The notes below the pieces were generated by a model. It saw only the letters and a list, made by a program, of their open reading frames with translations. It made no database searches and was not told the DNA's origin. From the NCBI GenBank assembly GCA_965200965.1, contig OZ241744.1, positions 3,424,001 to 3,488,000 of the forward strand: 64,000 nucleotides of DNA. Direction: 5' to 3'. Shown here piece after piece: positions 41,556 through 43,247 of this stretch (its first letter is position 1; each line of letters opens with the position of its first letter). The position numbers and the translations under genes are program-made. This stretch comes from an uncultured Candidatus Binatia bacterium (lineage in GTDB: Bacteria > Desulfobacterota > Binatia > Bin18).

Positions 41556-43247
41556 ATGGCAACACCTGGGAAAATGAGCGTTGAGAAGGGAAGGAAGTTT
41601 GAGGACTGGTGCGAGGACCATATCCGCGACGAAGTGTTTCCTAACGAGGACTATTTCAGAATCAAGCGCCAACATCATCCCGGCGGGAATTTGGAGAGGG
41701 TGGACTTTCACGTCCAGCTCAAGAAAAAACCTGGAAACCAAGGTTTGGTCATTGAGTGTAAGAATTATGGGAAATCTTCACTGGAATTGAGAAAGGCGAT
41801 TCGTCAAGTAAAGGAATATAAGAAGGCTACTGGGGCAAAGTGGGCGATGATATGGATAAGCAACGAGAGTGTGCCTTCCCCCGAATTTTTGAAGGATGCC
41901 AGCGATGCCGGAATTGAAGTTCATCAAATCGATATGTCTTTTATCCAGAAAGTGCCGATATTGAGGAACTTCAGAAAGAAACACAGGATCCTGAATCGGA
42001 ATAAGGAGGATGCCACATACATCGATCGCATGCACCGCGAATTAGCGGAGTATCTTGCAGAGGAGAACCAATCTAGCATAGCGGAAGCTCTGAATGAGAT
42101 GGAAATGGAAGTCGAGAGGGACTATAGAGCCTTTCTTGAACTCGTCGATATACCGGACGAGATGGGTGTTACGGAGGACTCTGGAGACTTCCTTTCTTCC
42201 CCGCATATGCAACCTGAAAGAGCCACAATGCAGAAGATTGATCTCATCAAGCCCGAGGAAATCATCGTTGATAAAGAAACCCTGACCGCAACCTATGGTC
42301 GCTTTACCGGGGAGCCTTTTGAGCGCGGGTTTGGCCTAACCCTGGGGAATGCCTTGCGTCGGGTCTTACTCTCCTCGCTGACCGGCGCGGCCATTACCAA
42401 GGTGCGCATCAACGGGGTCCTGCACGAGTTCTCAACCGTGTCCGGCATGACGGAAGATGTCACCGACCTCTTACTAAACCTCAAAGAAATCCGCTTCCGC
42501 CTTGAGGACACCGACCAGGAGACGATCCGGCTTGACGTGCAAGGCCAAGGGGAGGTCACCGCGGCCGACCTGAAAACCGATGCCCAGGTCGAGATCCTGA
42601 ATCCTGACAAGCACTTGGCCAGCCTCGGTAAAGACGCCAGCCTCGAGTTTGAAGCCGTCGTCCAAACCGGCCGGGGATATGTGACTACCGAGCAGCACAA
42701 ATCTGAGGACGACCCCCTTGGCACAATTCCGCTGGACGCGGCATTTTCTCCGGTGCGCAGGGTCAATATCACAGTCACCAACGCGCGCGTAGGCCAACGG
42801 ACCGATTATGAGCGGCTGGCCCTTGAAGTGTGGACCGACGGCAGCCTGAGACCAGAAAAAGCGGTTGCGGAGGCGGCCCGGATTATTCAAGACCAGTTCA
42901 GCGTTTTTGTCGGCCCAAGTGAGGAACAGGAATGGCGGGCCGAGACCAGGGAAGAGCCGGCTGGGGTCGTGAATGAAAATCTGCTGCGGCCGATTGAAGA
43001 ATTGAACCTGTCGGTGCGGTCTGCCAACTGTCTCCAGAGCGCCGACCTGCGCTATGTCGGCGAACTCGTCCAGCGCACCGAGCCAGAGTTGCTCAAGACC
43101 AAGAACTTTGGTCGAAAGTCCCTGAACGAAATCAAGGATACCCTCCAGAACATGGGGCTTGAGTTGGGTCTTCAACTCGGCGATTTTCCTTCGCGCGAAG
43201 AGTTGGACCGTAGGCGAGCAGAATACGAGCCAGAACTCAGTTCCTAG
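41556..43247 (+). CDS. rpoA: RNA polymerase alpha subunit with N-terminal PD-(D/E)xK endonuclease-like domain (RpoA portion from ATG 42228)
   Basis: Rpo[47 protein letters not shown]-terminal 224 aa: KGRKFE..VDF..VIECKNY..IRQVKEY. SD GGAGGA before 41556. Confidence 0.95.

Follow-up and report, generated by a model that had tools for sequence, protein, structure and literature searches.

A PD-(D/E)xK nuclease domain fused to RNA polymerase alpha in a Candidatus Binatia bacterium, and its relatives at five sites of the polymerase

Results

The fusion gene and its surroundings

The window, a 64,000-nucleotide stretch of contig OZ241744.1 from an uncultured Candidatus Binatia bacterium (assembly GCA_965200965.1), carries a gene that joins a nuclease domain and a linker to the alpha subunit of RNA polymerase (Table 1). 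We observed that positions 41556–43247 translate, as the initial annotation of the window had stated, in a single frame without stops into 563 aa followed by a stop codon. The native RpoA start at 42228 corresponds to residue 225, and the part downstream of it is an intact RpoA, also as described earlier; three Pfam RpoA domains (dimerisation, insert and C-terminal) pass their cut-offs. The gene sits between rpsD and rplQ in single copy, being the sole rpoA match in the 3.6-Mb single-contig genome. The distance from rpsD to the native rpoA start is 1,078 bases here, compared to 53–73 bases in the unfused g1 and g8 relatives. Four of the sequencing runs with most of the 64-kb stretch are recorded sponge metagenomes (most other labels are coded).

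The neighbors of the fusion are rpsD, a 70-aa ORF and rplQ, with no methyltransferase beside it; a crude motif count gave 17 methyltransferase-like frames elsewhere in the genome. A search of Rfam returned no match, and the promoter and terminator scans produced results at chance level.

The small ORF accompanies the cassette, and homologs of it lie between rpsD and rpoA in genomes G027, G035, G014, G020, G073 and G075. Small ORFs with a hydrophobic N-terminus and variable coiled repeats were found in seven genomes of two genera, with the nuclease present or absent. The ORF is shortened in the window genome, and only a remnant of it was seen in G007.

Table 1. Features of the fusion locus and of the rpoC insert in the window (window coordinates).
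Feature	Position	Strand	Remarks
RpoC insert, second polymerase addition in the window genome	24824..25417	+	~196 aa, repeated coiled coil, at E. coli beta-prime 1061–1075
rpsD (S4), conserved upstream flank	40520..41152	+	
Small ORF between rpsD and the fusion	41173..41385	+	70 codons; hydrophobic N-terminus, coiled repeat
Shine-Dalgarno GGAGGA of the fusion start	41542..41547	+	-9.5 kcal/mol to own 16S tail
Fusion gene: nuclease, linker and RNA polymerase alpha	41556..43247	+	563 aa + stop, P0001
PD-(D/E)xK (Mrr-like) nuclease domain	41568..41936	+	residues ~5–127; model, fold matches, conservation
Predicted active site	D50 41703; E67-x-K69 41754–41762; Q84-x3-Y88 41805–41819		also E16
Low-confidence segment after the nuclease core, possible amphipathic helix	41937..42017	+	residues 128–154
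Predicted two-helix hairpin	42018..42143	+	residues 155–196
Acidic, predicted disordered tether with decayed native rpoA ribosome-binding site	42144..42227	+	pLDDT<50, residues 196–233
Intact RpoA (N-terminal and C-terminal domains)	42228..43247	+	PF01193, PF01000, PF03118 over cut-off

Reality of the fusion and its product

The fusion is real and not an assembly error. A check of eight runs for a lost stop codon or an indel found that seven of them span position 42228, with no indel within the frame in any of them, and that five of the eight have the nuclease through RpoA on one contig (run X13 stops short of the junction). Runs X2 and X5 possibly represent the source sample, in which case two further studies remain as independent. 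The 90% protein cluster has 11 members, of which nine are 563 aa long, one (P0028) is a plain 339-aa RpoA and one is an unrelated 50-aa fragment; besides the allele in the window, eight further 563-aa alleles are present in the protein collection. P0028, known from protein alone, comes from a 3.3-kb contig and may reflect the way its start codon was called, truncation at the end of the contig or an allele without the fusion. We also observed that F448 (window position 42897) is unique to the window, the eight other full-length alleles all having L; strain variation or a miscalled base may account for it.

The nuclease and alpha are probably made as one protein. The strong Shine-Dalgarno sequence claimed for the fusion start was recovered, with GGAGGA before 41556 pairing with the 16S tail of the genome at -9.5 kcal/mol. 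The internal RpoA start had been described as weak, and the pairing before 42228 is indeed only -2.1 kcal/mol, compared to values from -5.2 to -11.3 kcal/mol in 42 unfused relatives. The native start methionine is absent from the alpha fusions of G007, P0064 and P0065 and from the beta fusion of G072. Furthermore, in other subunits the domain is inserted internally, and since internal inserts cannot be separate proteins, these are obligate fusions. Some plain alpha may still be made from the window gene, since Met225 is kept and a 339-aa cluster member exists. These two observations are what would favor an artefact, with a stop codon lost in assembly, or two products, with alpha made mainly from Met225. 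Against either version stand the independent contigs that bridge the junction, the decayed ribosome-binding site before 42228, the loss of the start methionine in relatives and the inserts inside other subunits, and we find both scarcely credible.

The nuclease domain

Residues 5–127 model as a PD-(D/E)xK fold (pLDDT 84, from 25 sequences). The fold check bore out the proposed class, with a restriction-endonuclease core and a best Foldseek E-value of 6.6e-5, and the alpha-beta-beta-beta-alpha-beta core required of the superfamily is present in the model. The best VIA match was Can2 (Z 9.9, rmsd 3.3, 120 aligned residues), and all 10 chains with Z of at least 8 have the PD-(D/E)xK fold. Foldseek matches to the domain included SfsA, BstEII, Card1, PaqCI, Avs4 and NucS; the closest folds are mainly defence nucleases (Can2, Card1/Cdn1, LlaBIII and PaqCI). 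The sequence signature, F15-E16, D50, E67-C-K69 and Q84-x3-Y88, is present as claimed, and the acidic residue D50 and the (D/E)xK motif E67-x-K69 fall on the expected strands. In the 25-row family alignment (one row partial), D50, K69 and Y88 are invariant.

The suggested Mrr-cat or RecB-like assignment held in part. The family is near Mrr_cat, since 20 of the 25 members match it at E<=0.01, but the copy in the window scored 19.4 bits against a cut-off of 21. Neither a winged-helix or SRA reader domain nor a PD-QxK site was found in P0001; the motif is D...ECK. With this motif and without a winged-helix reader, modification dependence of cutting is a guess. No Hint (protein-splicing) family was among the Pfam matches of P0001 at E<=1. 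No PADLOC 2.0 model fits the domain of the window, with four weak single matches among the 25 family members, and in the Atlas the domain resembles a PDDEXK_3 cluster at 0.93, which serves as a lead only. A methyltransferase with a C-terminal Mrr_cat-like domain is encoded elsewhere in the same genome (L124:1321-2964).

The full-length model has four folded units, namely the nuclease, the hairpin 155–196, the alpha NTD and the alpha CTD (pTM 0.41). Since these units are joined by low-confidence linkers, the model suggests a nuclease on a flexible tether of ~100 residues rather than a docked domain. The alpha fusion of G007 and the beta fusion of G072 likewise have, after the nuclease, segments that loosely resemble the linker hairpin.

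Homologs in RNA polymerase genes and as free genes

The search of related genomes for the fusion found matches in 13 of 401 Binatia genomes at E<=1e-4, ten of them strong (E<=6e-37). Six of the ten strong homologs lie inside RNA polymerase genes, four are free-standing and none is in any other gene; there are never two per genome, and the three weak matches lie outside polymerase genes. The first pass of this profile search scores at most 10 candidates per genome, so weak copies may escape it. The domain is fused to the N-terminus of alpha in G000, G005, G007 and G027 and to the N-terminus of beta in G072, and it is inserted into beta-prime in G031, where it replaces E. coli residues 554–569 between two coiled-looking segments. 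The free-standing genes, of 136–148 aa, are in G068, G073, G074 and G507 and have no constant partner gene.

Three more alpha fusions (P0064, P0065 and P0069) came from the best 120 of the 575 RpoA proteins of unusual length; most of the others inspected had low-complexity tails, duplications or read-through into neighbors. The best 120 of 6,620 long RpoB proteins yielded two inserts within beta, at E. coli positions ~977 (P0180) and ~1134 (P0182). All five are known from protein sequences alone. Thus, the domain occupies five polymerase sites: the N-termini of alpha and beta, two beta loops and one beta-prime loop. The insert of P0180 is circularly permuted with respect to the G031 beta-prime insert, as seen from order-swapped matches (54% over 100 aa and 40% over 67 aa), and it retains all motifs; residues 1–955 of P0180 are 97% identical to RpoB of the window genome. 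The initial annotation had drawn attention to the presence of alpha twice per polymerase. Because four other sites of the same family are in beta and beta-prime, each of which occurs once per enzyme, two copies per polymerase are not the key.

In the searches made, the nuclease family recurs nowhere but in genes of RNA polymerase and as stand-alone genes. A sample of 401 genomes of the phylum gave only the window and two weak non-polymerase matches. The free-standing G074 copy had no match in GenBank phages and plasmids, nor had alignment A4 in IMG/VR. Of two metagenome scans, the first found nothing and the second picked up 10 loci, each of them short or free-standing. A search of 50% clusters returned 18 short proteins of 119–228 aa, a search in which fusions are hidden behind ordinary RpoA, RpoB or RpoC representatives. 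For longer proteins, the 25-row profile returned the window's own cluster alone; it missed known fusions, so this search is insensitive. Free-standing homologs with the D-x-K motif were also seen on marine metagenome contigs (L126-L133), where the neighbors look archaeal from their translations.

Origin, movement and loss

The domain was proposed to be horizontally acquired, and low GC content and patchy distribution support this. The nuclease part is AT-richer, with a GC content of 46% in codons 1–130 and 48% in the linker compared to 58% in the RpoA part (57.5% in rpsD and 61% genome-wide), and its codon use differs as noted earlier (GC3 of 0.55 against 0.69).

In a 32-row tree the domain of the window groups with those of G072 (beta), P0069, G007 and P0065 (support 100/98), and G031 groups with P0180 (97/94). 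An alpha-only clade was rejected (p-AU 0.017). As the tree mixes alpha and beta carriers and rejects a clade of alpha fusions, movement of the module from one subunit gene to another is most likely. The fused group as such is weakly supported, at 79/38 for eight of the ten domains; a clade of all ten was neither established nor rejected (p-AU 0.07), and the branches are long; G005 may be a separate capture. The trees exclude P0064 (partial) and P0006, and the direction of gain and loss is deduced from unrooted trees.

Fusion state differs between very close species, such as G031 and G074 (98–99% identical in rpsD-rpoA) and G072 and G061 (98–100%), and the gains, judged from these sequences, are recent. 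No match to the domain was found by the profile search in 45 of 54 genomes of the family. Linker remnants without the nuclease occur in G004, G035, G020, G073 and G075, scattered on the RpoA tree, and G035 keeps the last helix of a G005-type nuclease followed by a stop codon. Given that most relatives have no domain and five have linker remnants, the domain can be dispensed with and is often lost. In G005 the first codons of rpoA are foreign (77% identity to G006 over the first 130 columns, 92–99% elsewhere), a short tract that co-conversion by a homing element could leave and that any transfer by recombination would be expected to give as well. Fusion cassettes cross genera (G035, P0069). Samples X2, X8, X9 and X11 (covering window positions 41108–42410) each also hold a divergent relative in which the rpsD-rpoA spacer is short; relatives with and without the fusion thus occur together.

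Selection on the added domain

The nuclease and linker are under purifying selection. A check on codons 1–224 across the runs counted nine synonymous and two non-synonymous SNP sites, whereas the expected synonymous share for transitions is 0.32 (p=0.001). Eight protein alleles carry four distinct changes in the 224 residues of nuclease and linker and eight in the 339 residues of RpoA; no predicted catalytic residue is affected, and V49M adjoins D50.

Among the ten fused domains, which are 22–56% identical, D50, E/D67, K69 and Y88 are kept in 10/10 and Q84 in 9/10, while position 16 is E in seven and Q in two and is unaligned in the permuted piece. Residues D50, E67, K69, Q84 and Y88 are among the 11 slowest of 118 sites in the fused copies. 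For P0002 and P0037, the added domains are 88% identical and the hosts 98%. The same residues are kept in free-standing members, and a recently captured domain could therefore look conserved without selection on the fusion.

Other additions to RNA polymerase

In the 30 genomes of g1 and g8 that are at least 90% complete (rpoB and rpoC went undetected in two of them), a foreign domain of at least 100 aa was present in RpoA, RpoB or RpoC of nine. Additions of the same size in GyrA, ParC, DnaE and RpoD, judged by stop-to-stop frame lengths, were present in 0/30. The difference between polymerase and control genes is significant in a post hoc Fisher test in which kin are not independent (p=0.002). 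No omega fusion was found in the 30 genomes; the 169-aa omega frame of the window genome was rejected as an upstream extension, as were the long RpoC frames of G014 and G033 and the ParC frame of G014, which are upstream shadow frames. RpoC of G003 has a break without an insert and was not counted.

Besides the fusion, the window genome has the coiled-coil insert in RpoC (Table 1), with no homolog elsewhere in the genome; kinship with the stalk of G031 was not significant (E 0.07). A helical RpoC insert of 212–238 aa with a hydrophobic hairpin was seen at one site in G002, G004 and G005 and, across genera, in G027 (L069:8653-9288 for G005; also L070, L071 and L072); in the Atlas this insert falls into unnamed clusters, with a weak mitofusin-like lead. 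Related helical inserts of 112–185 aa are near RpoB position 1000 in L077 (G036), P0181 and P0184, in the loop that carries the permuted nuclease in P0180. A Ser/Thr kinase domain (PF00069, E 4e-41) is at the N-terminus of the Binatia-like RpoB P0183, a single, C-terminally incomplete sequence known as protein only. L076 (G034) has an RpoC insert of 27 aa with four cysteines. In G014, L035:3158-5443 encodes a 761-aa protein with tandem alpha-CTD-like domains and a sigma-region-4 motif, beside a cytosine methyltransferase. Dozens of RpoA proteins ~50% identical to that of the window (many of P0084-P0176, among the best 120 of 575; one named Bdellovibrionales) have long low-complexity acidic or proline-rich C-terminal tails.

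Discussion

Our preferred explanation, with a probability of about 0.4, is that RNA polymerase serves as a delivery platform for a nuclease that cuts incoming foreign DNA, probably of phage, bound by the host polymerase. In its favor are the occurrence of the family at five sites in three subunits and in no other gene searched, as well as the retention of the active-site residues. Since the nuclease has no recognition domain, the polymerase would take the role that the DNA-binding module has in an Mrr-type enzyme, and the five differing attachment sites imply that local concentration rather than precise geometry would matter. Phage DNA would be destroyed at a step unavoidable for any phage dependent on the host polymerase, host DNA could be spared through its own modification state, and attachment to an essential, abundant subunit would make the defence constitutive. 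Cassettes would move between genera via recombination in the conserved flanks and would also be lost, as is common for defence genes. Sponge metagenomes are enriched in defence systems (PMC5099237). Counting against delivery are the non-nuclease domains (helical bundles, a Ser/Thr kinase, coiled coils) at the same or similar sites, which delivery to DNA leaves unexplained. In a wider form, these sponge symbionts would use the polymerase as an immune platform: an active, mobile nuclease would pass between the genes of alpha, beta and beta-prime and degrade phage DNA, and in relatives the enzyme would also bear kinases and membrane-type effectors; we put this at a little under an even chance.

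A guard mechanism accounts better for the mix of effector types than delivery does. The nuclease would be silent on the intact polymerase until a phage takes it over; clipping, modification or clustering would then activate the nuclease, which would kill the infected cell, as in abortive infection. The kinase of P0183 (one sequence) is a typical effector type on the same enzyme, helical domains with a hydrophobic hairpin are found in beta and beta-prime, and the top folds include the signal-activated nucleases Can2, Card1, Avs3/4 and Cap4. Phages modify alpha and bind beta and beta-prime, which also counts for a guard. So does the switching of EcoKMrr by its oligomeric state (PMC12707154). We nevertheless regard a guard as unlikely, as no sensor, inhibitor or trigger was identifiable, a working trigger would be needed at each of five unrelated attachment sites, and the free-standing copies are tolerated without partners. 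The passenger proposed at the outset fared differently in its two forms: a neutral one is disfavored by purifying selection and by confinement to polymerase genes, while a selfish element, which we think rather unlikely, is still to be weighed. Such an element would behave like a homing endonuclease, cleaving polymerase alleles that have no nuclease and spreading through gene conversion, or it would simply find shelter in essential genes. The patchy gain and loss between very close species (G031/G074, G072/G061), the foreign first rpoA codons in G005, the remnants, the cassettes crossing genera and the unfused relatives in the same samples as a carrier all agree with it, and homing enzymes of the PD-(D/E)xK type exist (I-Ssp6803I; PMC3424549). 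On the other hand, the sites are termini and variable loops of three genes and not one conserved target, there is no intein domain, the active-site residues are intact in all 10 fused copies, and the same loops take up non-nuclease domains, which have no ability to home; if shelter were all that mattered, other essential genes should be hosts too, and none was found among the four controls.

Catalysis could also be incidental, with bulky domains acting as a shield or decoy that blocks phage docking or as a clamp that adds DNA binding, cf. the N-terminal domain of Rpb5. The many unrelated domains that decorate the Binatia polymerase and the faster evolution of added domains than of their hosts (P0002/P0037) point this way, but the catalytic residues are among the slowest sites and the circular permutant kept them, which makes this reading quite doubtful. 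Finally, a tethered nuclease might nick R-loops, stalled bubbles or damaged DNA for repair. The fold matches to SfsA and NucS/EndoMS would suit such housekeeping; it is very improbable given that the domain is rare, quickly exchanged and fast-diverging, unlike repair genes.

The architecture fits no known system among those tested, and we found no description of a nuclease fused to a bacterial polymerase core subunit in a literature in which subscription journals were thinly covered. The nearest precedent is the N-terminal domain of Rpb5 (PF03871), which PMC551604 and PMC3424549 present as a restriction-endonuclease fold without catalytic residues built into an RNA polymerase subunit. That domain is catalytically empty and fixed across eukaryotes, whereas the fusion described here has intact residues, involves a bacterial core subunit, is patchy and recurs in three subunits. 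Type IV enzymes of the Mrr kind (EcoKMrr, MspJI; PF04471) share a related catalytic domain and the absence of an adjacent methyltransferase. EcoKMrr has a winged-helix reader and a PD-QxK site (PMC12707154), whereas the fusion is without a winged-helix or SRA reader, has D...ECK and is joined to the polymerase. Can2, Card1/Cdn1, Avs3/4 and Cap4 are structural matches (Z from 9.9 to 5.9) and likewise combine a small nuclease with a larger module, but at 7–20% identity, and here an essential housekeeping enzyme takes the place of a CARF, SAVED or STAND sensor as the partner. Homing endonucleases and inteins (I-Ssp6803I) resemble the family in being nucleases in or beside essential genes, with patchy occurrence, a short foreign flank and remnants; they differ in that the fusion has no splicing domain, uses variable loops and termini of three genes and stays in the predicted mature protein. 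Lineage-specific polymerase insertions likewise occupy surface loops that tolerate extra domains, and P0180 and the helical inserts fall, by E. coli numbering, in what we take to be the beta-i9/SI2 and beta-prime-i6/SI3 regions. To our knowledge, such insertions are non-enzymatic and stable across clades; here, enzyme domains are present or absent among species 98–100% identical in rpsD-rpoA.

N-terminal tags on alpha are tolerated in E. coli, so the domain could be grafted onto a laboratory polymerase. The genes rpoA, rpoB and rpoC, used as markers, are mosaic in these symbionts. Bacterial RNA polymerase is usually taken as a conserved machine with passive add-ons, and the nuclease family described here would contradict this passivity if the domain cuts. 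It would then represent a new coupling of restriction or cell suicide to transcription, or a new selfish element targeting polymerase genes, and the domain would be an active counterpart, in bacteria, of the nuclease domain that is catalytically dead in eukaryotic Rpb5.
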